Of a stretch of 64,000 nucleotides of DNA, positions 33,301-49,832 are shown in pieces. The notes beneath the pieces are model-generated. The model saw only the letters and a program-made list of their open reading frames with translations, was not told the origin of the DNA and did not search any database. The first letter of the stretch is position 1. Every line of letters starts with the position of its first letter. Both the position numbers and the translations under genes were made by a program. This DNA is from Planctomycetia bacterium (GTDB lineage Bacteria > Planctomycetota > MHYJ01 > WSZJ01): contig JADLHC010000130.1 in the NCBI GenBank assembly GCA_020849035.1, forward strand, positions 8,214 to 72,213. Direction: 5' to 3'.

Positions 33301-34381
33301 CCGCGCGGCCGGCTCCTCCCGCACCGAAGCCCTCCGGCACCTTGCGGCCTGCCTCCGCCGCCTCCGGGACTGGCCGCGTCTCTGCTCCACGCTCCAGGAA
33401 CTCTGCGAGCGGCCCGACCTCGATCCGCTCGAACGGCGGCAGGGCGAGCTCGAACTCCAGGCCGCGCACCTGTCCGCCCGCCTCGTGCCGCGCGCCGAAG
33501 TCCGGAGCCTGGCCTTCGCCCCGGGCCTCCGCGCCGAGAACCCCTGCCTCGTCCGCGCGGCGGGCGAAGACCTGGAGTTCCTCGTGGGCAAGGGCTACCG
33601 GACCTGCAGCGGGCTCCCGTTCGTGCTCACGGGCGGGCCGTTCCGCGCGCGGTGGTCCATGAAGATCGAGCCGCACGTCCTCGAGGCGAGCCCGATCGTC
33701 GGCTTCCGCGGCGCGCGCGACCGCCTCGGAGTCGCCTGCTTCCTCTCGGCGACGGCGAGCGCGCCGAGCGAGAAGCAGGCTCTGCTCTGGGACTGCGAGC
33801 CGTCGTGGTCGGAGAGCACGCCCGAACGGGACAACCGGTTCGAGACAGGAAGCGACTGGTTCGACGTCGAGATCGAGTACGCGCCTTCGGTGCCCATTCT
33901 GCACGCGACCTTCTCGCGCGGCGGGTCGCGCTACGACCTGGACCTGCACCCGCGCGGCCCGCTCACCCCCGGCGCCTACGTGTTCGGCCCGTTCGGACGC
34001 CGCGGCGAATCGGCGCCGACCGAGCAGCCCACGGTCGTGGTGATCCGGAACCTCGCGTTCGAGTCATCGGACCTCCTCTCCGGCCTCCGCCCGGCGTCGC
34101 CGGGCGACGACGACCCCCTCGGCGACGCCAACGGCCTGCTGGCGAAGGGGCGGGCCGAGGAAGCGCTGGCGCTCTACGGCCGCGCCGGGTCGGCCTCGCC
34201 CCGAGAGCACCCCGAGGCCGCGTTCTTCGCCGCGGTCGCGCTCCACAGGCTCGGCCGCGCCCCGGACGCCCGCGAGGCGCTTCGCACCCTGCGCGCCGCG
34301 GCCCCCGCCGATGCCGGCCGGCTCCTCTCCGAGTCCTGGGCAGGCCTTTCCGGCCCCGAGCGCGACTTTTTCCGGGAGTAG
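30338..34381 (+). CDS. Ser/Thr protein kinase, 1347 aa: N-terminal zinc ribbon, kinase domain, TM helix, large extracytoplasmic TPR / FG-GAP-like domain
   Basis: CAKCGGDL...CPRCAL; LGDGGMGEVWQAWD...VALKFV, HRDLKPDNLMV, DFGLAR, GTPAYMSPEQ; TM VAVGAVALVLVVTAASF; repeated DxDGDG motifs (DLDGDGSDE, DLDGDGRRE, DFDGDGDLE); RBS GGGGAGGAGG before ATG. Confidence 0.9.
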   Translation: MGGGRACAKCGGDLELRAGGSFCPRCALRSAFEDDARVIPPASSLPSRGAVPAEVLAAPADHRIGRYVRTARLGDGGMGEVWQAWDTELERWVALKFVKGGSGEDVERLRREARTTATLSHPNIAPVFEVGEEGGRHFIAMRLIEGRTMRGWPRGDRAEVVALVRDAARAVAHANDRGIVHRDLKPDNLMVERGPAGAHVWVMDFGLARVVSTPSGFSVTGIILGTPAYMSPEQAAGDPADARSDVYSLGATLFDLLTGRPPFEGKSSLDVLLKVRQDDPPRLRELDATLEPDLETIVAKCLEKEAGRRYSTVGEVADELDRWLRHDPIRARPASIAYRARKAIRRHRAPVAVGAVALVLVVTAASFRPASEALARSREAAARSARESDARRRLAGARERLARGEAAAARDEALAVASMTADGAAIPVAQAHAVAAQALELLGKADEVHAETTRAWISGAASADPGERAAAAEALFLAGRIWEARGELSHARGAWRSVVSRFPDVQCAPDAAFFAARASMQLGELSTAFREFSALVARPGLDPSRRQEAEQRVDLLRHLASVREFALPPGHVVAARLHGGSPPRLVALGRDGALQVLQFGSAGLDVAFESRLAAPQPSAVWVRAFAADLDGDGSDEILATWDAPRPELSFGGLRVLRRRDHALEAVADIPLKSSVVAALPVDLDGDGRRELVFGTQYEDRTLQVWSLSGPSPQKLFEHSFGGGSDVFDIRETGVAPGDLLVSFGGWKGWRLWRARWQPEAKLLAASATSPDLVHARSLVLLAPGRFAIANWWPEDHARAAGRLSPAHRLEPGLYEVTCSREGGLEAPRLWMSIDGEAEVERAAPARVAGRDMVVLQSRRVVEGGYRPRIDLVPVDAPGAPVATLTLEPEVFLGTADFDGDGDLELATTRSAGGGGLIRVHGWGGAVADGDPARVEGDAASALAPGRDLLAAGLFDGAADACARIGDWVGAGLARMEQGRFADAADLLGRAAGSSRTEALRHLAACLRRLRDWPRLCSTLQELCERPDLDPLERRQGELELQAAHLSARLVPRAEVRSLAFAPGLRAENPCLVRAAGEDLEFLVGKGYRTCSGLPFVLTGGPFRARWSMKIEPHVLEASPIVGFRGARDRLGVACFLSATASAPSEKQALLWDCEPSWSESTPERDNRFETGSDWFDVEIEYAPSVPILHATFSRGGSRYDLDLHPRGPLTPGAYVFGPFGRRGESAPTEQPTVVVIRNLAFESSDLLSGLRPASPGDDDPLGDANGLLAKGRAEEALALYGRAGSASPREHPEAAFFAAVALHRLGRAPDAREALRTLRAAAPADAGRLLSESWAGLSGPERDFFRE

Positions 34382-35228: not shown

Positions 35229-35738
35229 ATGACCGACCTCGACCAGATCGTCGTCTCCTCGTTGCGCAGCTTCCTCATGGAAGTCGTTTCCAACGGCTGG
35301 CAGGGGCGTGAAAGGGAAGCGGTCAGCCTCTACGCCTTCGGGGCGTTGCTCGCGGCCACGAAGCCGATGGTCGTCGACCCGCGCCAGATCGGCGTGGAGG
35401 TCGCCGTGCCCCAGATCCCCGCAAGAGGCGACGCCGCGAAGCTCTACGTCTGCAAGGACCTCGTGATCTGGCCGCGCCCGTTCGACAGCGCCTGGTCGAA
35501 CGCGGCCCCGCTCGCCGTCATGGAGTGGAAGGTCGATGCGGAGGTCAAGGCGCGGCGCGTCTCGGCCCCGGAGTTCCTAGAAACCGAACGGTGGCTCGAG
35601 GAGTTCACGCTCCTCCCGAAGCACGAGCAGACCTCCGGATATGCTGTCCACGTCAGCTTCTTCCCTCCGGCACGCGTCGTGTCCCTGCTCGCCTTCCGCT
35701 GCGGCAGGCGCTTCGAACTCACCCCGCACCTCTCCTGA
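35229..35738 (+). CDS. hypothetical protein
   Basis: 169 aa from MTDLDQIV, preceded by GGGAGGG RBS; no family recognised. Confidence 0.45.
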   Translation: MTDLDQIVVSSLRSFLMEVVSNGWQGREREAVSLYAFGALLAATKPMVVDPRQIGVEVAVPQIPARGDAAKLYVCKDLVIWPRPFDSAWSNAAPLAVMEWKVDAEVKARRVSAPEFLETERWLEEFTLLPKHEQTSGYAVHVSFFPPARVVSLLAFRCGRRFELTPHLS

Positions 35739-35806
35739 TCTCCCGCCTTGGGCGCGCCCCACCCCCGGCGTTACCATCCCCACTTCACCCACGCCGAGGA
35801 GTCCCC

Positions 35807-37216
35807 ATGCCGCCCTTCCTTCGCCGGTTCGCCGCCCTGCTGCTCCTTCCCGCGCTCGCCGCGCGCGCGGAGGAGGTCGACCTGTCCGACACCTGCCTGA
35901 AGCTCGCGGCCGTGCAGGAGCCGGACGTGGACGTTGCGAAGATGAAAGAAGCGCTGGCGGCGCTCGAGGCGAAGGCGAAGAAGCGGCTGGAGGGTGTGAA
36001 GGAGCCGCGGGAGGTCGTTGCGGGGCTGAACGAGGTCCTGCTGCTCGACCGGAAGGTCAGCTACATCTCGAACAAGTACTGGCGCGACTCGACGCTCGCG
36101 GCTTCCGTCCTGCGCGGGCAGGGGAACTGCCTGTCGACGTCGACGCTCTTCGCCGTCATCGGCCAGCGCCTGGGGCTGCCGATCCACGCGGTCACGGTCC
36201 CGGGGCACGCGTTCGCGCGGTTCGACGACGGGAAGACGCGGATCAACATCGAGACGACGAATCGCGGCGTCGAGATGACCGACGCGTACTACCGCTCGAT
36301 GGGGAGCTGGAGCGACGAGGACGCCGCCGCGATCGGCCACGGCCTGACCCTGTCCTCCGCGCAGTTCGCTTCGCTGCTCCACTCCTACGCCGGCCGCCAC
36401 CTCGTCTCGCTCGAGAAGCACACGGAGGCGCTGGCCCAGATCGACGCTGCGCTCAAGCTCTGGCCCGCCAACGAGGAGTACGCGCTGGAGCGCCTCGGGA
36501 TGCTCTACGACGGGCTGGGGAAGCGCGCGGAGGCGCTGAAGGGGTACCAGCGGCTGGCGAAGGAGGCGAAGAGCCCGGAAATCCGCGCCCGGTCGCTGGT
36601 CGGGATCGCGAACGACCTGCAGGCGACGGACAGGAACGAGGAGGCGCTCGACGTGCTGCGGCGGGCGTTCCACGACGCGCCGAAGTCGGCGCTTCCGGCG
36701 GTGCTGACGGAGATGGCGGCGTCGTACCGCACGCTGCGGCGGTTCAACGAGGCGCTGACGACGCAGGACCTCGCGCTCGCGGCGACGTTCCAGCCGGAGG
36801 CGGACGACTACACGCTGCTGGCGATCTACTACAAGAACGCGAACCTGCTGGACGACGCGATCCGCTGCCTCAAGCACAGCGTGGAGCGCAACCCCGAGGA
36901 CTGGAACACCCGCCTGATCCTCGCCGGCTACCTGATCCGCGGGAAGCGCGACGACGAGGGCTGGGAGTTGTTCAAGACGGTGCAGAAGCCGCCGGTGGAC
37001 GAGCAGTTCTACGAGACGAACATGGCGTGGTTCTTCGGGTCGGTCGGGAAGAAGAAGGAGTTCCTCGAGCACCTCGGGAATGCGCTCGACCTCGCGACGG
37101 AGCCCTCGATCCTGAACTACATCAAGACCGAGGTGGACTTCGACAAGTTCCGGGACGACGCGGAGTTCAAGGCGCTGGTGGAGAAGCACCGGAAGCGGCT
37201 GATGGAAAAGCGTTGA
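35807..37216 (+). CDS. secreted transglutaminase-like cysteine-protease-fold protein fused to TPR repeats
   Basis: Signal peptide MPPFLRRFAALLLLPALAARA with GAGGAG RBS; GNCLSTSTLFAVIGQRLGLPIHAVTVPGHAFARF = Cys...His arrangement of transglutaminase-like domain; C-terminal TPR helices. Confidence 0.7.
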   Translation: MPPFLRRFAALLLLPALAARAEEVDLSDTCLKLAAVQEPDVDVAKMKEALAALEAKAKKRLEGVKEPREVVAGLNEVLLLDRKVSYISNKYWRDSTLAASVLRGQGNCLSTSTLFAVIGQRLGLPIHAVTVPGHAFARFDDGKTRINIETTNRGVEMTDAYYRSMGSWSDEDAAAIGHGLTLSSAQFASLLHSYAGRHLVSLEKHTEALAQIDAALKLWPANEEYALERLGMLYDGLGKRAEALKGYQRLAKEAKSPEIRARSLVGIANDLQATDRNEEALDVLRRAFHDAPKSALPAVLTEMAASYRTLRRFNEALTTQDLALAATFQPEADDYTLLAIYYKNANLLDDAIRCLKHSVERNPEDWNTRLILAGYLIRGKRDDEGWELFKTVQKPPVDEQFYETNMAWFFGSVGKKKEFLEHLGNALDLATEPSILNYIKTEVDFDKFRDDAEFKALVEKHRKRLMEKR

Positions 37217-37322
37217 AGGGTTGATAGGTTGAGAGGTTGAGGGGGCCGCCATGCGGTCCGGAGGGCTCCCATGCGTAACCCTGATCCCCTCAACCCTTCA
37301 ACCCATCAACCTATCAACCCTC
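37212..37322. repeat. inverted arrays of 8-bp GTTGA(R)GG tandem units flanking a 40-bp spacer; embeds both convergent stop codons
   Basis: gttgaagg gttgatag gttgagag gttgaggg ...spacer ccgccatgcggtccggagggctcccatgcgtaaccctgat... ccctcaac ccttcaac ccatcaac ctatcaac cctc; TGA of 35807-37216 and TCA (minus-strand TGA) of 37314-38693 lie inside units. Confidence 0.75.
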
Positions 37323-38693
37323 GATCTCCGCCACGCCGGCACGCGCGCAGGCCTCGCGCATGTTCCCGCGCTTGAACTCAAGGTCCTTCGGCGTGCCGGA
37401 CTCGCGGAGGACCGACTCGCCGGCCCGCCACGCCTCCCGCGCCTCTCCCCGCCGCCCCTGGGCCGCCAGCACGCAGGCAAGGTCGCACTGCGCGCCTCCC
37501 TCGAACCGCCGGTTCCGCATGTCGCGGTGAATCCCCAGCGCCTCGCGCAGCGCCGCCTCCGCGGCCGCCGGGCGCCCCGTTTCGAGAAGCAGCAACCCGA
37601 GATTGCCGAGCTCGATCCCCTCGGACCGCCGGTTCCCGACCTCCCGGTGCACCGCGAGCGCCTCCGCGAACGCCCGTTCCGCCTCCGCAAGCCGGCCCAG
37701 GTCCTGCAGCACGTTCGCGAGATGCCCGAGCGAGATCCCCTCCGACCGGCGGTTCCCGATCTCACGGTGGATCGCGAGCGCTTCCCGGTGCGCCGCCTCC
37801 GCCTCAGCAAGCCTCCCCGCCATGCGCCGGACGAGCGCCAGCGCGCCGATGGCCACGCCTTCGTGAAGGCGGTTCCCCGTCGCGCGGTGAAGGGCGAGGG
37901 CCTGTTCGGCGGCGGCTTCCGCCTCCGCGTGCTTTCCGCCCTCGCGAAGGAGGGCGCCGAGATGACCCAGCGCGATCCCTTCGCCCTCCGCGTCGCCCGC
38001 CTGCCTCAGCAGCGCCAGCGCCTCTTCGAGCAGGCGCGCGGCGCTCGCCGCCCTTCCCGTCTCTCGGTGCAGGTTGCCCAGGACGGTCATCGCGCGCCCG
38101 AGCAGGCGCGAGTCCCCGGCGGCCTCGAGAGCAGCGACGACCTCCTTCTGCAAACGTTCCGCCTCGGAGGGGCGTCCCGTTTCGAAGAGCAGGCTGGCGA
38201 GATTCCCCCTCGTGGCCGTCGCCTCCCTCGCGTGTCCCCCCGAGGCCAGGAGCGGGATCGCCTCGAGGAGCAGCCGCTCCGCTTCCCGGACCTGGCCGCT
38301 GCGCCAGAGAGCCTGCGCGGCGCCCCGGAGCGCCTCGCCCTTCCGGGCCCCTTCGCTTCCCGCCGCCAGCCTCTTCCACAGCCGGATCGCCGCGCCGAGC
38401 CGCCACGACCGCTCTTCGAACGCCGCCGCCCGGCGGAGCGCCCCACGCTCGGCCTCTCCCCATCGCGCCACGTCGCCCCCGCCCGCCGCCCCCCGCGCGT
38501 GGTCCGCCAGCTCCTCCGCGAACGCGTCGATCTCGTGAGGTCCGATCCCCGGGGGAAGCCCGCCGTGCAGCGCTTCGATCGCCGCGAACGCCGCGCCGTG
38601 CAGCCGCGCCCGGTCGCCCGGCAACTGAAGCTGGTACGCGGCGTCCCGCAGGACCGCGTGGCGAAAGAGGCAGGACTGCTCCGCGTGCACCAC
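37314..38693 (-). CDS. TPR-repeat protein, paralog family A (N-motif FRHAVLRDAAYQLQLPGDRARLH; C-terminal CARAGV)
   Basis: 459 aa; many 34-aa TPR units (GNRRSEGI.LGNL... AL..HRE); shares N- and C-terminal motifs with 38700-40091 and 55995-57497. Confidence 0.75.
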   Translation of the reverse strand: MVHAEQSCLFRHAVLRDAAYQLQLPGDRARLHGAAFAAIEALHGGLPPGIGPHEIDAFAEELADHARGAAGGGDVARWGEAERGALRRAAAFEERSWRLGAAIRLWKRLAAGSEGARKGEALRGAAQALWRSGQVREAERLLLEAIPLLASGGHAREATATRGNLASLLFETGRPSEAERLQKEVVAALEAAGDSRLLGRAMTVLGNLHRETGRAASAARLLEEALALLRQAGDAEGEGIALGHLGALLREGGKHAEAEAAAEQALALHRATGNRLHEGVAIGALALVRRMAGRLAEAEAAHREALAIHREIGNRRSEGISLGHLANVLQDLGRLAEAERAFAEALAVHREVGNRRSEGIELGNLGLLLLETGRPAAAEAALREALGIHRDMRNRRFEGGAQCDLACVLAAQGRRGEAREAWRAGESVLRESGTPKDLEFKRGNMREACARAGVAEIEG

Positions 38694-38699
38694 GCGAGT

Positions 38700-40091
38700 C
38701 TAACCGGCCCCGTCGAAGGGCTCGACGCCGGCGTCCGCGCACGCCTTCGCCATCGTCTCCCGCTTCCGGACCAGACTCCCGCTGTCCCCCACCTCCCGCA
38801 ACAGATCCGTCCCCCGCCGCCAGTCGGCCCGCGCTTCGTCGAGGCGGCCCTCGCGCACGTGGAACACGGCGCGTTCGCACAGGACGATCCCCTCGGACCG
38901 GCGATTCTGGAAGCGCCGGTGAGTGGCGAGGGCTTCCTCCACCGCTGCGAGGCCGCGCGCCCTTTCGCCGCGCTCCAGGAGGAGACTCCCCAGGTTCCCC
39001 AACGCCGCGCCCAGCATGCGGCCGTTGTCCACCTCGCGATGAAGCGCGATGGCCGCGACGAGCAGGCGTTCCGACTCGGCCGGGCGATCCGTGTTCATGA
39101 GGTGCGCGCCGAAGTTCATGAGCGTCGTGGCCTCCGAGCGGCGGTTGCCGGTCTCGCGGTGGATCGCGAGGGCCGCCTCGAAGGCGCGCTCGGCGTCGGT
39201 CCGGCGATCCGCGGTGCTGTGCATGACGGCGAGATTCCCCCACGCGATCCCCGCCGACCGGCGGTCTCCGCGCTCGACGAACGCGTCGAGCGCCTTCGTC
39301 GCCGCCTCCACCGCCTGGTCCGTCCGGCCGCTCTCCTGCAGCAGCCCGGAGAGATTCGCCAGCGCCTTCGCCTCGTTTTCGCGGTCCCCCAGCTCCCCGT
39401 GCGTCGCCAGCACTTCCCGCAGAATCGCCTCCGCTTCCCGGACCCGCCCCGTCATGCGCAGGAGGACGGCCTGTCCGTTCTGCGAGGCGGTCGCCGCGAG
39501 CCGGTCGCCGTCGGCGCGCTGGAGGGCGAGGGCCTCGTCGAACCGCCGCCGCGCGCCCTCGACGTCGCCGAGTTCCAGCAGCACGAAGCCGAGCTGCGTG
39601 ACGGCGCCGGCCTCGCGGTGCCGGACTCCGCCGGCGCGGAAGAGGGCGATAGCGTCTTCCCACAGTTCGACCGCGGCGCGAGGGCGCCCGGCGTGTGCCG
39701 CGGCAGTCGCGGCCTCCGCGGTCGAGTCCGCCCTCTGCACGCCCTCGCACAGCTCCGCATGCGCCCGCCAGAGCCGCTCCGCAGCTTCGTCCCGGTACAT
39801 CGCCGCCGCATGCCGGGCCGCCCGCGCCAGGTAGAGCCTCCGCACCCCGTCCTGTCCCGCCCCCGCGGCGTGGGCCGCCAGCTCCTCCGCCACCGCATCC
39901 GACGCATGTCCGCCCTCCGCCGCCGGCCGGCCCCCGAATCCCCGCTCGATCGCCTCCAGCGCCAGCCCGTGCAGCCTCTCGCGGTCGCCCGGAAGCTGGA
40001 GCTGGTAGACGGCTTCGCGTGCCATCGCATGCCGGAAGGCGTACGCGACCTCCGCGAAGGGCGGTCCTGGCGTCTCCGGTTCGTCGGCCAC
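38700..40091 (-). CDS. TPR-repeat protein, paralog family A (tandem copy)
   Basis: 463 aa; AYAFRHAMAREAVYQLQLPGDRERLHGLALEAIE near N-terminus; C-terminal KACADAGV; 6 bp from downstream paralog. Confidence 0.75.
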   Translation of the reverse strand: MADEPETPGPPFAEVAYAFRHAMAREAVYQLQLPGDRERLHGLALEAIERGFGGRPAAEGGHASDAVAEELAAHAAGAGQDGVRRLYLARAARHAAAMYRDEAAERLWRAHAELCEGVQRADSTAEAATAAAHAGRPRAAVELWEDAIALFRAGGVRHREAGAVTQLGFVLLELGDVEGARRRFDEALALQRADGDRLAATASQNGQAVLLRMTGRVREAEAILREVLATHGELGDRENEAKALANLSGLLQESGRTDQAVEAATKALDAFVERGDRRSAGIAWGNLAVMHSTADRRTDAERAFEAALAIHRETGNRRSEATTLMNFGAHLMNTDRPAESERLLVAAIALHREVDNGRMLGAALGNLGSLLLERGERARGLAAVEEALATHRRFQNRRSEGIVLCERAVFHVREGRLDEARADWRRGTDLLREVGDSGSLVRKRETMAKACADAGVEPFDGAG

Positions 40092-40112
40092 CGCCCGAGT
40101 CTACCCGGGCGA

Positions 40113-41132
40113 TCAGCCGTCCCCCTCCCGTTCGGGAAGCGCCGCCTTCAGCCGCTCGGGCATGGTCTCGAGAAGCCGGGCTGTCCAGTCCGCGACGGCG
40201 ATCGGCTTGACGATGTCCCGCAGGGCGCACTCGACGACGGCGCCGTTGCGGCCCCGGGCCAAGAGGAGGCCCAACGTCGGGCCGTCCCCCGGCCTGCGGA
40301 ACCGGTCGTCCACCGCGGAGAGGTAGAAGTTGAGCTTGCCCGCGAACTCGGGACGGAACGCGCGCGCCTTCAAATCCACGACGACGAAGCAGCGCAGGTC
40401 GAGGTGGTAGAAGAGGAGGTCCAGCCAGAACTCGTCGCCTCCGACGTCGAGCCGGACCTGGCGGCCGACGAGGGCGAACCCCGTCCCCAGCTCCAGCAGC
40501 GTCTGCTGGACGTGGTCCACCAGTCCCTGCTCCAGGTCGCGCTCGGCCGCGTCGCCGGAAAGGGTGAGGAAATCGAAGTTGTAGGGATCCTTGAGGATCG
40601 AGGCCGCGAGGTCGGACTTCTCGGGCGGAAGTATGCGGGAGAAGTTGTTCGAGGTGCGGCCTTCGCGCTCGTGCAGTCCGGACTCGATTTGAAGGTCCAG
40701 TACGGCACGGGACCAGCCGTGGGCCACCGCCTTTCGCGCATACCAGGCGCGGAGGTCGGATTGCTTCAAGGCGCGCAGCAGCAAGAGGTTAGGGCCCCAG
40801 GGCAATTGTCCAACACCCTGTTGGACATTTTCCTCCGCGGGCCAGGCCGCGGCGAAAGCGCGCATGTGCATGAGATTCGCGCGAGAGAAGCCGCGCATCG
40901 CGGGGAACTCGCCGGTGAGGTCCTGGGCAAGGCGGTCGACAACTCCTGCCCCCCAACCTTGTTCTTTCTGGGCGCGGAGGATGGAGCGACCGATTTGCCA
41001 GTAAAGCAAGACCAGCTCGCGATTGACTGCGGTCGCAGCGCGCGTTTGGGCGGAATAGACCTTGCTCTTCAACTCGGCGAGCAGGGGCAGGTAGCCATCC
41101 AATGGCGGCCTGTACTCCGGTGGAGAAGGCAT
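40113..41132 (-). CDS. YhcG/DUF1016-family PD-(D/E)xK nuclease domain protein
   Basis: 339 aa; C-terminal ILKDPYNFDFLTL...ERDLEQGLVDHVQQTLLELGTGFALVGRQVRLDVGGDEFWLDLLFYHLDLRCFVVVDLK matches YhcG-type PDDEXK core. Confidence 0.8.
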   Translation of the reverse strand: MPSPPEYRPPLDGYLPLLAELKSKVYSAQTRAATAVNRELVLLYWQIGRSILRAQKEQGWGAGVVDRLAQDLTGEFPAMRGFSRANLMHMRAFAAAWPAEENVQQGVGQLPWGPNLLLLRALKQSDLRAWYARKAVAHGWSRAVLDLQIESGLHEREGRTSNNFSRILPPEKSDLAASILKDPYNFDFLTLSGDAAERDLEQGLVDHVQQTLLELGTGFALVGRQVRLDVGGDEFWLDLLFYHLDLRCFVVVDLKARAFRPEFAGKLNFYLSAVDDRFRRPGDGPTLGLLLARGRNGAVVECALRDIVKPIAVADWTARLLETMPERLKAALPEREGDG

Positions 41133-41239
41133 CCATCCTCCAGGCGCGGTGAGGGACAGGGGGGCGCGGGCTCGCCGTGCGAGACCCGGATCGCCCGCCG
41201 CGCGGGACCGAAGCGGCGCAGGGCCGCCTCGGGAGGCGG

Positions 41240-41340
41240 ATCGAATGTTCGTATTCAGTATCGCTTATGTTAGTGGAAAGTCAAGCTAAATTTGGGAACT
41301 TGTCTCGAAAATGAAACACCATCTTCCGCGCTCGCACCGC
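41240..41340 (+). promoter_or_regulatory. AT-rich putative promoter region upstream of S8-peptidase operon
   Basis: cgaatgttcgtattcagtatcgcttatgttagtggaaagtcaagctaaatttgggaacttgtctcgaaaatgaaacacc: local GC far below window mean, 200-300 bp upstream of 41543 start. Confidence 0.35.
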
Positions 41341-41542
41341 CGGCGTGATTGCTCGTGTGGAAGTTCCGAGCCCGTGACCGCCAGCCGCGAAGGGCAGGAC
41401 CACTCGAGTTCCCAGCGACCCGCTCTCCGGATCCCCCTAGATCGCCACCTTCCGTCATTTCCTTGCCACAGACACGGCCCGGGGAGAGGATGCTCCACCC
41501 CGGCTCGAGGGATCCGGGTTTCCATTTTCAGGGTAGTGGCCC

Positions 41543-43120
41543 GTGAAGAACTTGTGTGCGGTCCTCCGTCCTTGCTTCGTCGCGATCGCCGCTCTCGGCG
41601 CGTGTGCCGAAGACGCGTCGTCCCCGGTGACCGTCGCCCTCGTTGACTCCGGCGTGGACCCTTCCCATCCGGCCCTTCAAGGCGCCCTCGTTGCCGGCGT
41701 CGATGTGCTCAACCCCGGGAAAGCCATGGCCGACGCGTCCGGGCACGGGACTGTGATGGCCGGCCTCATCGTGGGGCGGTCGGACCGGCCCGAAGTGCGG
41801 GGCTGGGCGGCGGACGAGGCTGTGAGCCTCCTGCCGATCAAGGTGACGGACGGCGAAGTCGTCGCGCCGGCCGCGCTGGCCGCCGGCATCGACGCCGCCG
41901 TCGAGCGCAAGGTCGCCGTGATCTGCATCCCGCTCGCATCCCCAGAGTCAACCGCCGAGATCGACGCCGCACTCGATCGCGCCCGCGAGGCCGGGATCCT
42001 CGTCGTCTCCGCGGCGGGGCCGGTCTCCCCCGAGTTCGGAGGGTTCGACCTTCAGCCCGCGGCTCACCCGTGGGTCGTGTCCTGCACCGACTCGGAAGTG
42101 GGCCCGCTGCTCCTTCCCCGCGGTCGTGGCGTCGCAGCCCGCGGCGCGCGCGCCGAACGTGTCCCGGCCGGAAGCGCCGCGACGGGCAAGACCGAACTCA
42201 TGGTCGACGGCCGCGCGATCCCGATCGCCGTCAAGGGTGCACCGGAGACGATTCGCGGCACCTCTGTCGCCTGCGCCCGCGCCGCGGCGCTCGCCGCGCT
42301 CCTTCGCGCGGCCCGCCCGGACCTCGACGCCGCCCGAGCCCGAGAAATCCTCGTGACCGCCGGCCCGCTTCCCGAGGGGATCCGCGAGCAGGCCACCGAG
42401 CGGCTGCGAAGGGCCAGCCGCGAGGGCGTGACGGCCTGGTCGCGCAGGCGAGACGGTCCCGCCGGGGACCTGTACATCGCCACCGTCCGCCGCGCGCACG
42501 GTCCGCAGAAGTGCCTGCAGGTCCTGGTCGAGGTCGCCAATCTCGGCGGCGCGCCCCTCGCCGGGCGGGTCGAGTTCCAGCCGCCGGGCGACCGCGACCT
42601 GCTCTCCGAGGATCTCGAACCGATTCAGCCAGGCGGCCGCCGGGCCGTCGTCTTCCGTCTGCTGGACGTGCCGTTCAACGAGGTCGCGCTCGTCCGGCTC
42701 GTCGCCCCGGAGGACATCAACCCCGGGAACAACGTGACTCGCGTGATCTGCCACCCGCCGGAACAGGGCGGCGTCGAGGTCCACGGTCTGCGCCTCCTCG
42801 GTCGCCGCGCCGGATCGCCGCGGGTCGTCGCTTCCGCCCGCCTCTGGAACGCCCTCGAGGAGCCGCTCGAGGTCGACGTATCCGCGGGCGTCGGCGAGGC
42901 CGGCGGGACCGCGCGCGCCACGGTCCCGGGGGCGGGGTTCGCGGACGTGGAGATTCCCTTCGACGTGCCTGGCGGCGCCGATCCCATGGAGTCGCCCTTC
43001 GTGCTGTCCGTCACCTCCGGCCGCCGGCAAGTCGCGCGCGCCGCAGCCCTTCTCGATTTCGGCCCCGCCGAGTTCGTCCCCAGGCTCACCCCGCCGTTCC
43101 CCGGGAGGAAAGTACGCTGA
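41543..43120 (+). CDS. secreted subtilisin-like S8 peptidase with C-terminal CARDB-like domain, no propeptide
   Basis: Signal MKNLCAVLRPCFVAIAALGACA; catalytic D (VALVDSGVD), H (SGHGTVMAG), S (GTSVACARAAAL); oxyanion position reads AAGP instead of canonical AAGN; C-terminal VEFQPPGD...INPGNNVTRV CARDB-like. Confidence 0.85.
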   Translation: MKNLCAVLRPCFVAIAALGACAEDASSPVTVALVDSGVDPSHPALQGALVAGVDVLNPGKAMADASGHGTVMAGLIVGRSDRPEVRGWAADEAVSLLPIKVTDGEVVAPAALAAGIDAAVERKVAVICIPLASPESTAEIDAALDRAREAGILVVSAAGPVSPEFGGFDLQPAAHPWVVSCTDSEVGPLLLPRGRGVAARGARAERVPAGSAATGKTELMVDGRAIPIAVKGAPETIRGTSVACARAAALAALLRAARPDLDAARAREILVTAGPLPEGIREQATERLRRASREGVTAWSRRRDGPAGDLYIATVRRAHGPQKCLQVLVEVANLGGAPLAGRVEFQPPGDRDLLSEDLEPIQPGGRRAVVFRLLDVPFNEVALVRLVAPEDINPGNNVTRVICHPPEQGGVEVHGLRLLGRRAGSPRVVASARLWNALEEPLEVDVSAGVGEAGGTARATVPGAGFADVEIPFDVPGGADPMESPFVLSVTSGRRQVARAAALLDFGPAEFVPRLTPPFPGRKVR

Positions 43121-46100
43121 TGAAGAGCTCGACCGTGATCGCGTGCCTGCTCGCGCTGTTCTTCACGGCCTGCGGCAAGCCGCCCGTGCCGCCGCGGCCA
43201 GCTGTGCCGCAACAGCCGCCCCAGGGCGACCCGCCGCCGCGCGATCCCCCGCCCGCGACTCCCGCTGCATGGGCGCCCCGCGCAACTCCGATCGAAGGCG
43301 ACATCGTCGTCGCCGTGATCGACACCGGCGTGGACGCGACGCACCCGGCGCTGAAGGGCAAGGTCCTCGAGGGCGTCTCGCTCGCCCCCGTCCCCGGCAC
43401 GACGGAGGACGCGATCGGCCACGGCACGGCCGTCGCGGGTCTCGTCTGCGCCGACGCCGAAGACGACCAGTTCGACGGCGTCTGTGCGAAGCAGCCGGTG
43501 AAGATCCTCCCGATCAAGGTGACCGGCGACCTGGGCGCGGAGGCGCTGCCGACCGCCGTCGGCCTGGCCGTGACCGAAGCCGTGAAACGCGGCGCCCACG
43601 TCGTCTGCATCCCGATGGGCGGCTCGTTCACGACCGACGCCCTGGAGTCCGGGATGGCGCTGGCGAAGGAGAAGGGCGTGCTGGTGCTCGCCGCGGCGGG
43701 GATCGGGACGCCTGCGACGCACGACTTCTACCCGGCCGCCCACCCCTGGGCCATTTCCTGCACCGGCGAGCGGGAAGCGCGGACGGAGACGTTCGCCGGG
43801 CGCGAGATGCAGTGGTACTACCGCGCCGACTACGCGAACTGGTCCGGCAAGACGGAGCTCATGGGCCCGATCTTCGCGAAGGTCCTCGCCCCCGGAGACG
43901 GCTACGCGTCGCTGCAGGGCACGAGCGTCGCCTGCGCGCGTGCCGCCGGCCTCGCCGCGAAGCTCATCGCCGCGAACCGGAGCTGGAGCGCCCAGCGCGT
44001 GCGGGACGTGCTGACGCTGTCGGGGTCGCCGGACTATGCCGGTAACGCCTATGCGCACTGCCCCGCGCGCCATGTCGATGCGGAGATACTCGATGATGCG
44101 ACGAAGTCGCCGCCGAAGGAGAAGTCGGATCTCGCCGTGCTCTGGATAGAGCCGGAACCCTGGCCGAAGCCCGATCAGGCCTTTCGTGCACGAGTGGAGG
44201 TTCGGAACGTGGGGGCTGCCCCCGGCGCGGGAAGCGTCACCTTCCGGATTGCCTCGGAGAATGTCGAGGTGAAGGTCCCCATCAGTGAGTTGCTACCGGG
44301 CGAAGGTTGCACGGTCCGGATCCCTGTTCCAGGACTAAAGCAAGGCAAGTTCTTGAGTGAAGTCGAGGTCTTCGAGGACAAAGCGGCCAGCCTCGCGAAC
44401 AACCGGTTGATCGCGAAGCTCGCGGTGGATCCTCGCGACAACGCGGCAGGATGTGGGCTTGTCTGGCTTGAGGGGATGCGTGCCGATTCGGACGAGTTGG
44501 TCCTGCACGGGCTCGCCTCGAATCCGAACGATCGCGCTCTCGAGACGGCAATCTCCGTCGCCGTTGCGGAACCGGATGCCAGGCTGCAACTCCGTTTGAA
44601 TCCGTTCGAGTCGCGGTGGGTTCGGTTGCCCATGGTCATAGGCAAGCCGGGTGGCGGCAAGAAGGGCGTCGCCGTCGTCGTGAAGACCGTTGAAGAAGGC
44701 GAGTCCTTCGGGAACGTAACTGTCCTGCTCGATGTCTCCCGAACTACTTACTCACCGCAGTACGCCGACGTATGGGGATTGAAGGAGATCATCGTGGATG
44801 CGCCGGCTAGCATCTCTACGGCGCGCTCCACCCTTCCCATCATGCTGTTCACTCCCGAGATTCACACTGCGCAGCTCCCAGAGCGGTTCCTTTACGAGGA
44901 TGGGGACACCGGGGAGTTGTATGCAGGCTCCGGCCTCTGGTTGTCCGATGTGATGATTGACCTGCTGAGCGGTCCTCAGGCAGCCACCCACGTACCGCAG
45001 CCCAGGTTCGATCCGCACGTCCCAACCGGGCGATGCCTGTTCCGGGCCCACCAGGAACTCGGATCTTCCGTGCTCAGTGGTCCAGTCACATTCTGGAATC
45101 GAGGTCGGTCGGCCCGTGTGGAGAACTGGTGCGGAACGAAAGTAGGCCGTGACCAGTTCCTCGGCTGGAAGCGCCATGATGGCTGGCATGCGGTCATTGT
45201 CGTTCCACGCGAAGACGTCGAGTACTTCGCGCAGCAGGACTATGACCGGGTCAGGGATGAGTACTTCAGGGTTGCGGTCCATTACTTCTCCCTCGCGAAG
45301 CACCCCAGCGTCACCAACTCGAAGCGCCGCGGCTACGACGAACGGACCGAGGAACAGGACCAGGAACTCTGGCAGGAAACCGTCCTCCGCGTCACGTTTA
45401 ACGTGGATCCCCCGAGGCTGGATGACAGGGGGCACTACTACGACGTGCACGTCCACACGGCGGCGGAGTTCTCGCGCGACGCCGTGGAGCCCCGGCTGGC
45501 CTTCGGCGGGCCGCCGTGGATGATCGCGCGGAGCGCCCATGCGATGGGGTTGATCGACGACGAGGATCTGCTGACGGTTCTGCTCCGCGTTCATCCGGCG
45601 GGCCAGGCGTTCGCCGCGCGATGGAACTTGCAGCTCGGCGAAGACGTGCTCATCACGACCGACCACAACTGTTTTCTCTCCGACACGGACGAGCCCACGG
45701 CTGCGCCGTGGGGCGGGAGATTCGGCGGGAACGAGATCGGCGTCCTGCGCGAGTCGTTCGGACGCTGCGACAACCAGGAGCTCTCGATGGCCAAGCCGTT
45801 CGCGGCCACGGGCGCGATGCACGCCCTCGTCTACGGCGCGGAGCCGATGGAAGGCCCGTGGCACGGCGGCCGCGGCATGCGCGGCATGCTGGCGGCGATC
45901 CGGGACACGCTCGAAGCCGTGGCGCTGACGGATCGCGCCATGGACTACCTCGGCTGGCACCCGAAGACGAAGAGGCTGAAACCGCCGACGTGGGTCATCG
46001 CGAAGCTGCTTCACCTGCTCAAGTACGGCGCCGGCGTGACGGAGCAGCAGAGCGCCGAGGTCCGGGACGGCCTGCAGGAGTGCCTGAAGTCCGTCCTGGA

Positions 46101-48741
46101 CCAGCACACGCGGCGGGACATCGATCCGTCCCTGATCCGCAGGTTCTGCGACATGTGGGGGGACACTTCCCAGGCGGACCTGCGGGCGTTGCTGGACCAG
46201 ATCGACGCGGTGCTCGAGTCCGCCGAACACCGGCCGGAGAAGAACCCGTGGGACGTCGTCGCGACGGAGGACCGCATGGCACGCGACGATGCCGCCTACG
46301 TCGCCGCCCACCCGTTCCTCGGGACGAAGTCCTTCCGCCACGCCGACGACGTCGCGCGCTCGACCTCGACAGGGGATCGCGAGGCTCGGGGAACCCCCTG
46401 GATCCAGGAGGGGCTTCCCCTCGGTCCCGGCGACCTGGCGTGGCTCGAGGGCGAGCTCAAGCGCGCCGCGAACCTGGCCGGGATCCACCGCAACGCCGCG
46501 CGTTATCCGCACCGGTTCCCGTTTCGCGGCGTGCAGCTCTGGAACGAGCCTCACTTCTACGCGACCGCCCTCGACAGCCCGAACGACCTCACGATGCTCA
46601 ACATCTGGCGGACCGGCGTGCTGAAGCCGCAGCCGAAGTGGTTCGACGAGCTGGGCTTCGGCGTCCACTACTACCTGAAAGAGCTCGTGCAGCCGGGGTT
46701 GCGCTGGTCGTTCGAGCCCGACCTGCGGCGCGAGGACGGGGCGACGCGGCTCCTGCTGCGGAAGCTGTTCCACTACGCGGGAAGCGACGCGCATGGCAGC
46801 TTCAACTTCACGACGGGCGTCGGCGCCTCGATGCTGACGGAGCCGCGTTTCGAAGCGATCTTTGCCCTGCTCGGGCACGGCCACGGCACGGAGACGCACA
46901 CGTCGCACTACGGGGCGGCGCGGGTGTACGCGGAGAAGGAGTCGCTGGACGAGGTGCTGGCGGGGCGCGTCGTGTGCACCGACGGGCCGGTGGTCTGGCC
47001 GGAGCTGGACACGGACGTGAAATTCGACTCGCTGGCGCTGCTCTGGCACGACAGCTGGCGCGCGGCGAGCCAGGGGATCAACCGGGACGGCGAGATCGGC
47101 GGCGGCGGGGACTTCGACGGCGCGCGGACGGCGCTCGCGCGTCGGGGCTGCCCGGACATGGTCCTGCGCTGGCGCGCGGCCGGCGATCGAGGGCTGCGCG
47201 GGCCGGTCCGCCGCATCGAGTGCTACCGCGTGACCGCGTCGCAGGACCGCGTCCCCCGCGCGACGCGCGGCATGCCGCTGCCGTTCCTCGAACCTGCCGT
47301 CACCGCGCCCTGCGCGGAGCACGCGGACACGCAGTTCGCGCTTCTCGGAAGCGCCCTCGGCCCGGGGGAGCCGCAGGCGCTTCTCGTGGCCGGCTACACG
47401 GCGGAGGAGGACCGGGCGCTGTTCGACGTGGAGCAGCGGCGCTGCCTGGCGAACCCGATCTGGGTATCGACGGTGAAGATCGGGGCGACGGCGGCGCCGG
47501 TGGTCGCGGACGGGAAGGCGTTCATTCCGCCGGGTGCGCTGATCGCGACGTTCCGGACGGACCATTCGGGGGCGGACGTCGGGCCGGGCGGGGCGGGGAA
47601 GGGCGCGCCGCCGGTCGTGTGGGCGAGGCAGCTGGACGTGAAGGGGGACAGCGTGCTGGGGCGGTGGCGGCTCAAGCCGGTCTGGCGCGGCGATGCCGTC
47701 GGTTACTGGGACAACGAGGAGCGGCAGATCGGCGGGAAGGTCCTGCGGGTGGCGGACTGCCTGATGACGGCCGTGAACGAGGAGCCGATTCCGCTTCGGC
47801 CGGACTGGTATCCGATCGAGGGAGTGGACACGTTCGCGATCATGTGGGAGAAGCCGCAGGACGCGTTCGGGAACGTGCTGAACGCGGTGGCGGACCTGCT
47901 CGAGGTCGCGGTCCCGGCGGGGACGGTGACGACAGGGGATCCGGGCTCCCCCGGCGATCCGGGCGTGGAGCCCGAGCCGAAGCCCGTCGAGTCCGGGCGC
48001 GGCCCGAACGGGGGACCTCCCGACACGGCGACCGTGCAGGTGCGGCCCGGGGAGACGGTGCAGTTGCCGAAGGGTGGGACCTGCGACGGGAAGAGGATTC
48101 CCCCCGGGGACTGGACGGTCCCGGATCTTCCCGCGGCCGGCGTGTCGCTCGTCGTTTCGGCCGGCGGGCAGACGCTGACGATCCTGCTCCGCGAGACGCC
48201 GTCCCCCTCTCCTGCATTCCTGGACCAGACGACCCGCGGTTTCTACGGCGCCGCGCCGACGCCCGGTCAGGGGCCCGCGACCGTGTCCCTCAAGAACCAC
48301 ACCCAGAAGACGCTCGAGGCGCCCGTTCCGGTCGTCGTGTCCGGCTCCACCTGCGTCTTCTCCGCACCGCTTGCGGAGCCCGGCGCCTGCGACGTCACCG
48401 TGATCCAGGGTGGGGCATCAAAGACAACGTCGATCGAGGCCGTCGCGCCGAGAATCGCATGGGACCAGCCGGACGCGCAGCCGGGCGAAACCCGCGTGCT
48501 CCGCGTCACGCTCGAAGGCGCGAAGTCGCCCGGCGACTGGTCGCTCTCGGGGACCGTCGAGATCGCGAACGGACAGGTGATGTCCGTCGCAGACCCCGCG
48601 CGCATCGCGCTGAAGGGGCCCGTGCTGACGCTGGACGCGCTGCCCGCCTCCGTCCGCGACATCGCGCAGGTCCAGGCGCAGCAAAGCGGGACGATGATCG
48701 CGACGGCCCGGCTGCGGGTGAGGAGGAACGCGGAGAGGTGA
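43120..48741 (+). CDS. giant (1873 aa) lipoprotein: N-terminal S8 peptidase domain + CARDB-like domains + PHP-phosphoesterase-like motifs + C-terminal Ig-like region
   Basis: Lipobox LLALFFTACGK; GGGAGG RBS; TGATG overlap with upstream S8; S8 triad VAVIDTGVD / IGHGTAVAG / GTSVACARAAGL (oxyanion position AAGI); CARDB-like VEVRNVGAAPGAGSVTF; PHP-like motifs YYDVHVHTAAEFSRD, ITTDHNCF, HYAGSDAHGSFNF. Confidence 0.8.
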   Translation: MKSSTVIACLLALFFTACGKPPVPPRPAVPQQPPQGDPPPRDPPPATPAAWAPRATPIEGDIVVAVIDTGVDATHPALKGKVLEGVSLAPVPGTTEDAIGHGTAVAGLVCADAEDDQFDGVCAKQPVKILPIKVTGDLGAEALPTAVGLAVTEAVKRGAHVVCIPMGGSFTTDALESGMALAKEKGVLVLAAAGIGTPATHDFYPAAHPWAISCTGEREARTETFAGREMQWYYRADYANWSGKTELMGPIFAKVLAPGDGYASLQGTSVACARAAGLAAKLIAANRSWSAQRVRDVLTLSGSPDYAGNAYAHCPARHVDAEILDDATKSPPKEKSDLAVLWIEPEPWPKPDQAFRARVEVRNVGAAPGAGSVTFRIASENVEVKVPISELLPGEGCTVRIPVPGLKQGKFLSEVEVFEDKAASLANNRLIAKLAVDPRDNAAGCGLVWLEGMRADSDELVLHGLASNPNDRALETAISVAVAEPDARLQLRLNPFESRWVRLPMVIGKPGGGKKGVAVVVKTVEEGESFGNVTVLLDVSRTTYSPQYADVWGLKEIIVDAPASISTARSTLPIMLFTPEIHTAQLPERFLYEDGDTGELYAGSGLWLSDVMIDLLSGPQAATHVPQPRFDPHVPTGRCLFRAHQELGSSVLSGPVTFWNRGRSARVENWCGTKVGRDQFLGWKRHDGWHAVIVVPREDVEYFAQQDYDRVRDEYFRVAVHYFSLAKHPSVTNSKRRGYDERTEEQDQELWQETVLRVTFNVDPPRLDDRGHYYDVHVHTAAEFSRDAVEPRLAFGGPPWMIARSAHAMGLIDDEDLLTVLLRVHPAGQAFAARWNLQLGEDVLITTDHNCFLSDTDEPTAAPWGGRFGGNEIGVLRESFGRCDNQELSMAKPFAATGAMHALVYGAEPMEGPWHGGRGMRGMLAAIRDTLEAVALTDRAMDYLGWHPKTKRLKPPTWVIAKLLHLLKYGAGVTEQQSAEVRDGLQECLKSVLDQHTRRDIDPSLIRRFCDMWGDTSQADLRALLDQIDAVLESAEHRPEKNPWDVVATEDRMARDDAAYVAAHPFLGTKSFRHADDVARSTSTGDREARGTPWIQEGLPLGPGDLAWLEGELKRAANLAGIHRNAARYPHRFPFRGVQLWNEPHFYATALDSPNDLTMLNIWRTGVLKPQPKWFDELGFGVHYYLKELVQPGLRWSFEPDLRREDGATRLLLRKLFHYAGSDAHGSFNFTTGVGASMLTEPRFEAIFALLGHGHGTETHTSHYGAARVYAEKESLDEVLAGRVVCTDGPVVWPELDTDVKFDSLALLWHDSWRAASQGINRDGEIGGGGDFDGARTALARRGCPDMVLRWRAAGDRGLRGPVRRIECYRVTASQDRVPRATRGMPLPFLEPAVTAPCAEHADTQFALLGSALGPGEPQALLVAGYTAEEDRALFDVEQRRCLANPIWVSTVKIGATAAPVVADGKAFIPPGALIATFRTDHSGADVGPGGAGKGAPPVVWARQLDVKGDSVLGRWRLKPVWRGDAVGYWDNEERQIGGKVLRVADCLMTAVNEEPIPLRPDWYPIEGVDTFAIMWEKPQDAFGNVLNAVADLLEVAVPAGTVTTGDPGSPGDPGVEPEPKPVESGRGPNGGPPDTATVQVRPGETVQLPKGGTCDGKRIPPGDWTVPDLPAAGVSLVVSAGGQTLTILLRETPSPSPAFLDQTTRGFYGAAPTPGQGPATVSLKNHTQKTLEAPVPVVVSGSTCVFSAPLAEPGACDVTVIQGGASKTTSIEAVAPRIAWDQPDAQPGETRVLRVTLEGAKSPGDWSLSGTVEIANGQVMSVADPARIALKGPVLTLDALPASVRDIAQVQAQQSGTMIATARLRVRRNAER

Positions 48742-49832
48742 CGTCCCGCGCTCGTTCCTTTGACGCGCGCCGCAGTTCTCCCTTTCATTCCCCCGTGAAC
48801 CGCGAACGCAAGGACGCCGTCGCCGCCGCCGCGCAGACGCTTTACGACGCGAAGCCCTGGGAGACGCTCGAGGGCGAGGATTTCTTCGGCTTCGTCCACC
48901 CGCCTACCGGCCTCCGGGCCTGCGTCTCCGTGATCGGCTCCGCCGGCCAGACCTTCGGCCTGTCGATCTGGATGGGTGACGGCGGATTCGAGCAGGCGGC
49001 GCGCTTCGTCGCCGGCGCAACCGGCCCCGACGAAATGGCCCTGTCTTCCGATCTCCTCTCGCTCACTTTCGAGCGCGGCCCCGACCCGGCCTGGCGCGGG
49101 CGCAAGGACCCGACGTTGCTCGCCCCGATCCGCGCGGGAAAGCGCACGCTGTACCCGAGCGTGTGGCGCAAGCCCGCCGGCCGCATGCAGGAGGCGCCCG
49201 ACAACGCGCACGCGCTTTTCCTCGAAGCGCTGGCCCTCGCGATCCCGCGGCTGATCGCCGCCGGGCGCATGGTCCCCGCGGGCAAGGCGGGAGCGCTTGA
49301 GATCCCCGCCTTCACACTTCCGGCGGATCCCGGCGGCGAAATCCTCGACGCGGAGCCGTGGAGGGTTTCGGAGAAGCGCCTCGAACCGGAGACGCCGGCG
49401 ATCGAGGTCCCCGAGGACGTCCGGGCACGCCTCCGGCTGCGCCGCGCGACAGGCGAAGTCGCGGTCTCTCTCGCGCTCGTCCCCATGACCGTCCAGGACG
49501 ATCCGGTCCGCCTGTTGATCGTGGCCTCGCAGGAGGGGCTGGTCCTCGACGCCTGCCCGATGCTCGGACCGTCGGCCGTCCGCGATTCGGTCCACCGCCT
49601 CCTGCGCGCCTTCTCGGGCCTCCAGGCCGGCGGCGCCGGACGCGACGTGCCTCTCCCCGAGGTGATCATCGCCGACACGCCGGACCTCCACCGCGCGATC
49701 GAGCCGGTCCTCGCCCCATTCGGGGTCACGGTGCTCTTCGAGTCGCCATTCGAGCCGCTCGACCGGATCAAGGATGCGTTCGTGGAGAAGATGCTGTCGG
49801 AGCGGCCAGGGGGGAGGATGAAGGGGAAATGA
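48738..49832 (+). CDS. hypothetical protein, translationally coupled to giant lipoprotein gene
   Basis: GTG start overlapping TGA of upstream gene (GTGA) with AGGAGG 10 nt upstream; 364 aa, no signal peptide, no family recognised. Confidence 0.5.
   Translation: MTSRARSFDARRSSPFHSPVNRERKDAVAAAAQTLYDAKPWETLEGEDFFGFVHPPTGLRACVSVIGSAGQTFGLSIWMGDGGFEQAARFVAGATGPDEMALSSDLLSLTFERGPDPAWRGRKDPTLLAPIRAGKRTLYPSVWRKPAGRMQEAPDNAHALFLEALALAIPRLIAAGRMVPAGKAGALEIPAFTLPADPGGEILDAEPWRVSEKRLEPETPAIEVPEDVRARLRLRRATGEVAVSLALVPMTVQDDPVRLLIVASQEGLVLDACPMLGPSAVRDSVHRLLRAFSGLQAGGAGRDVPLPEVIIADTPDLHRAIEPVLAPFGVTVLFESPFEPLDRIKDAFVEKMLSERPGGRMKGK

Follow-up and report, generated by a model that had tools for sequence, protein, structure and literature searches.

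The window analysed here is a stretch of 64,000 nucleotides (nt) from a Planctomycetia bacterium (contig JADLHC010000130.1, positions 8,214 to 72,213), with a G+C content of ~70%; all positions given below are those of the window unless a locus is named. Its gene B encodes a giant protein of 1873 amino acids (aa) that is predicted to be exported and lipid-anchored, and that combines an S8 peptidase (subtilase) domain with a domain predicted to adopt a very divergent PHP fold. The protein is probably a hydrolase whose S8 and PHP-fold domains act jointly outside the cytoplasm in the breakdown of phosphorylated biopolymers. Gene B and its regions, defined partly by local hidden Markov models (HMMs), are as follows:

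43120-48741, plus strand: gene B, 1873 aa, ATG start; predicted lipoprotein with S8 domain, beta-domains, PHP-fold domain and C-terminal domains
43120-43284, plus strand: signal peptide, lipobox Cys18 and proline-rich linker (aa 19-55); Cys kept in P0001-P0005
43285-44079, plus strand: S8 peptidase domain (aa 56-320); Pfam 3.1e-24; triad D68/H101/S269; Ile195 in place of the oxyanion Asn
44113-44754, plus strand: tandem CARDB-like region (aa 332-545); local HMM matches 52 family proteins
44752-45414, plus strand: conserved pre-domain (aa 545-765); motifs QYADVWG, DAPA, PE.HT and DGWH; local HMM matches 37 family proteins
45415-47379, plus strand: PHP-fold domain with C-terminal beta extension (aa 766-1420); candidate ligands, plus invariant N1142 and K1215
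45877-46239, plus strand: ~120-aa helical insertion (aa ~920-1040) between barrel strands 4 and 5; close family of gene B only
47380-47919, plus strand: post-domain (aa 1421-1600); motifs RC.(A/T)NPIW and GN.LN; local HMM matches 97 of 160 family proteins
48013-48729, plus strand: C-terminal domain (aa 1632-1870); close family only; local HMM matches 16 proteins

Gene B contains the motifs DVHVHT, TTDHN and GSDAH, which are invariant in its family. An alignment of 113 homologues, sharing 26-83% identity with the query, revealed nine invariant candidate ligands (H777, H779, E783, H849, E887, H901, H1064, D1223 and H1225) as well as the likewise invariant N1142 and K1215. The AlphaFold2 (AF2) model of the domain (predicted local distance difference test, pLDDT, 86.1; predicted template modelling score, pTM, 0.88) shows a PHP-type distorted (beta/alpha)7-barrel like that of solved PHP proteins, with the nine His/Glu/Asp candidates located at or just after model strands 1, 2, 3, 4, 5 and 7. 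The fold was visible only with a deep alignment, and an AF2 run on a 12-row alignment, which gave a pLDDT of 42, was discarded. PHP sites use nine His, Asp, Glu or Cys residues to hold three metals (PMC5636811), and the nine candidates of gene B would converge on a common metal site in the model. Since the nine invariant residues occur in PHP order, the PHP assignment of an earlier note on this DNA, which was made from the sequence alone, appears to hold at the level of fold and motifs, as a very divergent member of the fold.

Several observations weigh against this assignment, or against the function proposed for the protein. The best Foldseek match in the PDB is a PHP enzyme, but at a non-significant E-value of 0.1. 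Neither Pfam (PF02811) nor NCBIfam gave a PHP profile match to the whole gene B protein or, at E<=10, to excised or spliced segments of the PHP region, and Pfam left the PHP-fold domain uncovered in all 39 family members scanned. Family profiles compared with PDB sequences yielded only spurious matches (helical proteins and antibodies), while hhalign of these profiles against Escherichia coli YcdX and Rnm reached a probability of <2% and aligned just the D.H.H, TDH and AHP motifs. Moreover, E783 lies four residues past the second His, whereas the His/Asp of E. coli YcdX and Rnm lies six residues past it; the ligand role of E783 is therefore assumed. On the protease side, the oxyanion-hole Asn is lost both in the sub-lineage of gene B and in gene A, and proteolysis may therefore be weak or specialised. 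The earlier claim of a PHP domain thus finds no counterpart in profile-HMM searches, and draws its support from the structure prediction on the deep alignment and from the invariant motifs.

The structure-match list for the domain (scores in parentheses) comprises 3e38 (13.8), PsfC (13.3), TM0559 (12.3), 3o0f (11.8), EndoQ (11.7), DnaE PHP domains (10-11), RNase AM (10.8), PolX (7.8), YcdX (7.7) and histidinol phosphatase (7.6). A PHP fold would not in itself prove phosphoesterase chemistry, because the second-best match, PsfC (7rty), acts in fosfomycin biosynthesis as a dinuclear non-heme-iron enzyme with a PHP fold (PMC12871164). The domain could instead carry out another metal-dependent reaction (hydrolysis of an ester, carbamate or amide, or an oxidative reaction like that of PsfC) or serve as a metal-dependent binding module, and the invariance of N1142 and K1215 in this family would fit such a role. 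We consider this quite unlikely, as the nine canonical ligand positions are invariant, as in trinuclear hydrolytic PHP sites (PMC5636811), and most of the top structure matches are phosphoesterases or nucleases.

In the mechanism that we favour, a lipobox and a proline-rich tether would be followed by the S8 domain, beta-sandwich spacers, the divergent PHP-fold barrel and further beta-rich domains, with the nine invariant residues placed at those ends of the strands that carry the metal centre in PHP enzymes. Both activities would act outside the cytoplasm on one complex substrate: (i) the S8 domain, or domains, would cut protein; (ii) the PHP-fold metal centre would hydrolyse phosphoester (or similar ester) bonds. 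The outcome would be extracellular breakdown of phosphorylated biopolymers and nutrient scavenging. Metal binding by the PHP-fold domain, phosphoester hydrolysis, joint extracellular action and a role of gene A are what we infer for this system.

When 1.84 billion representatives were searched exhaustively with a profile, 154 proteins were recovered at E<=1e-3, 100 of them at E<=1e-30, and a word-indexed search of 5.8 billion proteins found just 14 relatives of the non-S8 part of gene B. Local HMMs made region by region from gene B were run on 160 family proteins, and an S8 domain was found N-terminal to the PHP-fold domain in 81 of them. The S8 plus PHP-fold arrangement therefore appears to be the commonest architecture of the family, and the fusion to be recurrent rather than a one-off; the uniqueness suggested for the architecture of gene B is not supported, since these 81 members share it. 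A crude test of hydrophobicity indicated signal-like N-termini in 88 of 110 full-length members. All named members come from Planctomycetota metagenome-assembled genomes (MAGs), and the unnamed family is apparently restricted to Planctomycetota. Five paralogues of the giant gene occur in one Brocadiia MAG (L014, L016, L018, L019 and L020) and two in another MAG (L017 and L021), and the contig of the window has a second giant copy (P0006, 42% identity) outside the window. Both S8-less members examined (L022, 6885-10616; L023, 4461-8715) adjoin a ~420-aa gene with faint WD40-like beta-propeller matches only. One of these members, P0027, lies directly after an IS66 transposase gene, and may therefore be a truncated copy.

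The literature search found no account combining S8 with PHP, and no profile library holds a model of the domain; this divergent clade of the PHP fold and its joining to a subtilase thus appear to be undescribed, although both folds are themselves known. Public records label these proteins of 1500-3000 aa just "S8 peptidase" or "hypothetical", because Pfam, NCBIfam and profile searches do not detect the PHP-fold domain. Recognition of the domain defines a sizeable unnamed family (the 154 proteins at E<=1e-3 being cluster representatives), gives its proteins a second likely, predicted catalytic centre, and suggests that protease plus PHP fold is a recurrent, selected combination in predicted-exported Planctomycetota proteins.

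Lipoprotein and lipobox calls were made by inspection. The lipobox of gene B (LFFTAC followed by G), which the earlier note had read as FFTACG, is present, and its Cys is conserved in all five close (~1850-aa) orthologues, P0001-P0005, which agrees with the lipoprotein proposed there. The ~1750-aa relatives have a signal or anchor without Cys in place of the lipobox. The S8 domain matches Peptidase_S8 (PF00082) with 86.2 bits against a cut-off of 21.8, and D68, H101 and S269 are kept without exception in 12 close homologues and in 75 of 75 S8 domains of the wider family; the complete catalytic triad reported for the giant protein is therefore intact. In an alignment with thermitase (AAAGN vs AAAGI), the oxyanion-hole Asn (N155 of subtilisin BPN') corresponds to Ile195 of gene B. 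This position is occupied by Val, Ile or Ala in 17 of 17 close relatives of gene B, whereas Asn is kept in 41 of 58 distant members, so that loss of the Asn appears to be a derived trait of the gene B sub-lineage.

Gene A, a second S8 gene, lies immediately upstream of gene B and overlaps it:

41543-43120, plus strand: gene A, 525 aa, GTG start; S8 protein with a predicted export signal
43104-43122, plus strand: coupling site; GGGAGG Shine-Dalgarno sequence and TGATG, formed by the gene A TGA (43118-43120) and the gene B ATG (43120-43122)

The gene A product consists of a signal peptide with an LGAC lipobox (aa 1-21), an S8 domain (aa 29-273; PF00082, 80.8 bits, 1.4e-22, with the same cut-off of 21.8 bits) and a C-terminal region (aa ~300-525). 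Its catalytic triad, D33/H68/S241, is kept in the orthologues, in which GTS is changed to GLS or GIS, and the oxyanion Asn position is Pro or His in gene A and its orthologues (Pro in gene A itself). No propeptide was detected in gene A, in line with its original description as a propeptide-less S8 gene, nor was one detected in gene B. Gene A is 34% identical over 335 aa to aa 62-383 of gene B, which points to a paralogue that arose as a duplicated copy of the N-terminal S8 domain and following region of gene B.

The GGGAGG sits 10 nt upstream of the TGA-ATG overlap, and this start/stop overlap, reported earlier as TGATG at 43120, is kept in all three orthologous loci. In the loci of the ~1850-aa orthologues (L001/L002/L011, L007/L012 and L009), a 525-aa S8 gene always precedes the giant gene and overlaps it, by 4 nt in L001, L007 and L009. 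Gene A orthologues were found only beside subfamily-1 giant genes; no gene A partner was seen beside the ~1750-aa giant relatives or at the two loci inspected that hold genes of the wider family. Gene A is thus predicted to be translationally coupled to gene B in the sub-lineage of gene B only. Locus L013 has a short S8-like stretch (5406-5855, 38% identity to aa 29-188 of gene A) upstream of a 42%-identical giant gene, and this stretch may represent either a remnant or a gene A that has diverged.

The conserved A-B overlap also bears on a maturation cascade, in which gene A or the fused S8 domain would process the giant precursor and free or activate the PHP-fold domain, the S8 domains being maturases. 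Neither S8 carries a propeptide, the remodelled oxyanion hole fits a slow, single-turnover or highly specific protease, and the proline-rich tether and inter-domain linkers could be cleavage sites, all of which would suit such a cascade. Nevertheless, gene A is missing beside the ~1750-aa relatives and was not seen beside the two wider-family genes, and so cannot be a general requirement; no cleavage motif was identified, and the canonical Asn is kept in most distant members (41 of 58), as in ordinary active subtilases. We regard the cascade, which the earlier note had raised, as unlikely, and an obligatory activation of the giant protein by the free S8 is not supported, given the relatives that have no gene A partner.

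Within the favoured reading, of a protease and a PHP-fold hydrolase acting on the same substrate, a broader proposal can be put forward only tentatively: that the family represents a new class of extracytoplasmic bifunctional Planctomycetota enzymes, in which a PHP trinuclear centre is coupled to a subtilase and dismantles phosphorylated macromolecules. In the gene B sub-lineage, with the Asn lost and the paralogue gene A present, the subtilase would perhaps be a processing or substrate-handling module. If this is true, substrates may include extracellular DNA-protein complexes, phosphoproteins or phosphorylated glycopolymers.

Of the remaining regions of gene B, the CARDB-like domains named in the earlier note fall below threshold in gene B itself (PF07705, E=0.27, 11.9 vs 22.7 bits) and are recorded in some relatives, namely P0012, P0014 and five of 39 wider family members. 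The pre-domain (aa 545-765) had no Pfam match in gene B or in the 39 members scanned. The helices of the insertion in the PHP-fold barrel occupy model positions 181-297, equivalent to aa 920-1036 of gene B; alignment occupancy of this segment is 0.1-0.3 in the wider family, and most of the 154 proteins recovered, distant members among them, align in two halves with this segment left out. A 158-aa gene in L007 (16378-16821; equivalent to L012, 15122-15565) is a stand-alone copy of the last ~150 residues of the C-terminal domain, 68% identical and separated from the giant gene upstream of it by a few kb.

Downstream of gene B is a third co-directional open reading frame (ORF) with its stop at 49832:

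48795-49832, plus strand: gene C, 345-aa DUF7309/DUF6930 protein; NCBI start

The three genes had been taken for one coupled operon, with gene C joined to gene B by a GTGA overlap preceded by AGGAGG. Both sequences exist (GTGA at 48738-48741, AGGAGG at 48721-48726), but the GTG at 48738 is probably not a real start and was rejected in favour of the conserved start at MNRERKD. This is where both the 345-aa NCBI record and the 70%-identical orthologue P0016 in L008 begin, the start codon being GTG at window position 48795 but ATG in L008, where no other in-frame start codon was found upstream of that ATG. For these reasons gene C most likely starts at 48795, 54 nt past the gene B stop, and the GTGA overlap would be incidental. 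Just upstream of this start, TTGAC-N17-T(T/C)TCAT is found in both loci (window 48755-48797; L008 73-113); this may be gene C's own promoter, giving a near-leaderless mRNA.

Synteny likewise shows conservation of the A-B pair only. The one orthologue of gene C, P0016, is located away from any giant gene, none of the other giant-gene loci examined contains gene C, and in L009, which holds the closest gene B orthologue, a convergent gene takes its place downstream. Gene C was accordingly rejected as an operon partner, as it adjoins no other giant gene and most likely has its own start 54 nt downstream; it appears to be an unrelated neighbour, and the conserved unit to be the A-B pair. Nor does its product lack a recognisable domain, as had been thought: DUF7309 (PF23988) reaches 41 bits, the cut-off being 27 (1.7e-10), and is precomputed for P0015 and P0016 as well, with DUF6930 sub-threshold. 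No hydrophobic signal-like segment was seen at the N-terminus of gene C, and the literature search found nothing on DUF7309.

Upstream of gene A, the following features lie in or border the intergenic region:

41240-41319, no strand assigned: AT-rich island, 36% GC by composition profile; inside the 410-bp divergent intergenic region between yhcG and gene A
40113-41132, minus strand: yhcG/DUF1016 PDDEXK nuclease gene; Pfam 3.7e-55; start at 41132; divergent from gene A

The AT-rich promoter island of the earlier note is thus present, but it is not specific to gene A because the divergent intergenic region is shared with the minus-strand yhcG, and the sole sigma-70-like match in the island region is on the minus strand (41284->41257). 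A plus-strand ORF at 37251-41273 (1340 aa) was rejected as a gene: no Pfam profile matches it, it overlies yhcG and two TPR genes of the minus strand, and it is a shadow ORF of a kind typical of DNA with 70% G+C.

The neighbouring genes are as follows:

30338-34381, plus strand: 1347-aa Ser/Thr kinase with FG-GAP and TPR repeats, upstream of the locus
35525-37216, plus strand: 563-aa transglutaminase-like and TPR protein, upstream of the locus
37314-38693 and 38700-40091, minus strand: paralogous TPR_12/TPR_10 proteins of ~460 aa
49932-52556, minus strand: 874-aa TPR and CHAT (caspase-like) protein, convergent with gene C

Recurring neighbours of the A-B pair are the ~460-aa TPR proteins, YhcG-type nucleases and CHAT proteins. 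The TPR arrays recur beside the pair in L001 (13578-15071, 16397-17779 and 20166-21347) and L007 (16988-18388, 18391-20148 and 20169-21548). Their N-termini read FRHA..R.A.YQLQLPGDR..LHG and are not preceded by an NTPase domain; they may resemble the helix before the TPR arm in STAND-type NTPases. The yhcG gene of the window (40113-41132, minus strand) matches the PADLOC candidate defence gene PDC-S02 (2.5e-133), in L001 the orthologous A-B pair has a 60%-identical YhcG copy and a shorter paralogue upstream of it, and CHAT and Peptidase_C14 genes flank the pair in L007.

These neighbours raise the alternative of a conflict or defence island, with the giant protein as a surface or secreted effector against competitors or phage. 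The YhcG nuclease and the CHAT-TPR protein adjoin the locus, YhcG, CHAT and ~460-aa TPR arrays recur near orthologues, and the family is multi-copy, reaching five paralogues in one MAG. Set against this, PADLOC matches genes A and B only to generic subtilases, genes for toxins, immunity or secretion systems were not observed, and TPR, CHAT and kinase genes recur throughout the window and related loci, so that adjacency says little. We consider such an island highly improbable, and continue to favour an exported hydrolase.

Compared with known subtilases (MEROPS S8; nearest solved chains thermitase and subtilisin), gene B has the same PF00082 domain well above threshold, its D/H/S residues in the canonical order, and a likeness to thermitase of 1e-19. 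Unlike ordinary subtilases, it has no detected propeptide, Ile stands in place of the oxyanion Asn (Pro in the case of gene A), and the motif after Ser reads GTSVACARAAG vs GTSMATPHVAG in thermitase and savinase. The mycosin model TIGR03921 scored 102 bits, far under its cut-off of 279.

The PHP superfamily was represented by the two-domain PHP-like phosphoesterase 3e38, TM0559 (2anu), RNase AM/TrpH (9etk), EndoQ (5zb8), the PHP domains of DnaE and PolX, YcdX and HisK. The gene B domain differs from these in that no PHP model or PDB chain matches it at the level of sequence profiles, and in that its barrel region is over twice as large as usual and contains large insertions, among them the ~120-aa helical bundle. 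It also has Glu as the third ligand with a different spacing, and an additionally invariant Asn and Lys. The gene B protein is predicted to be exported and is fused to a protease, whereas the named solved PHP relatives are nucleases, phosphatases or polymerase domains, none of them protease-fused. PsfC, in turn, is a small phosphonate-biosynthesis enzyme (a 244-aa chain) with dinuclear iron, whereas gene B encodes a giant, predicted-exported protein with nine positions of the trinuclear type.

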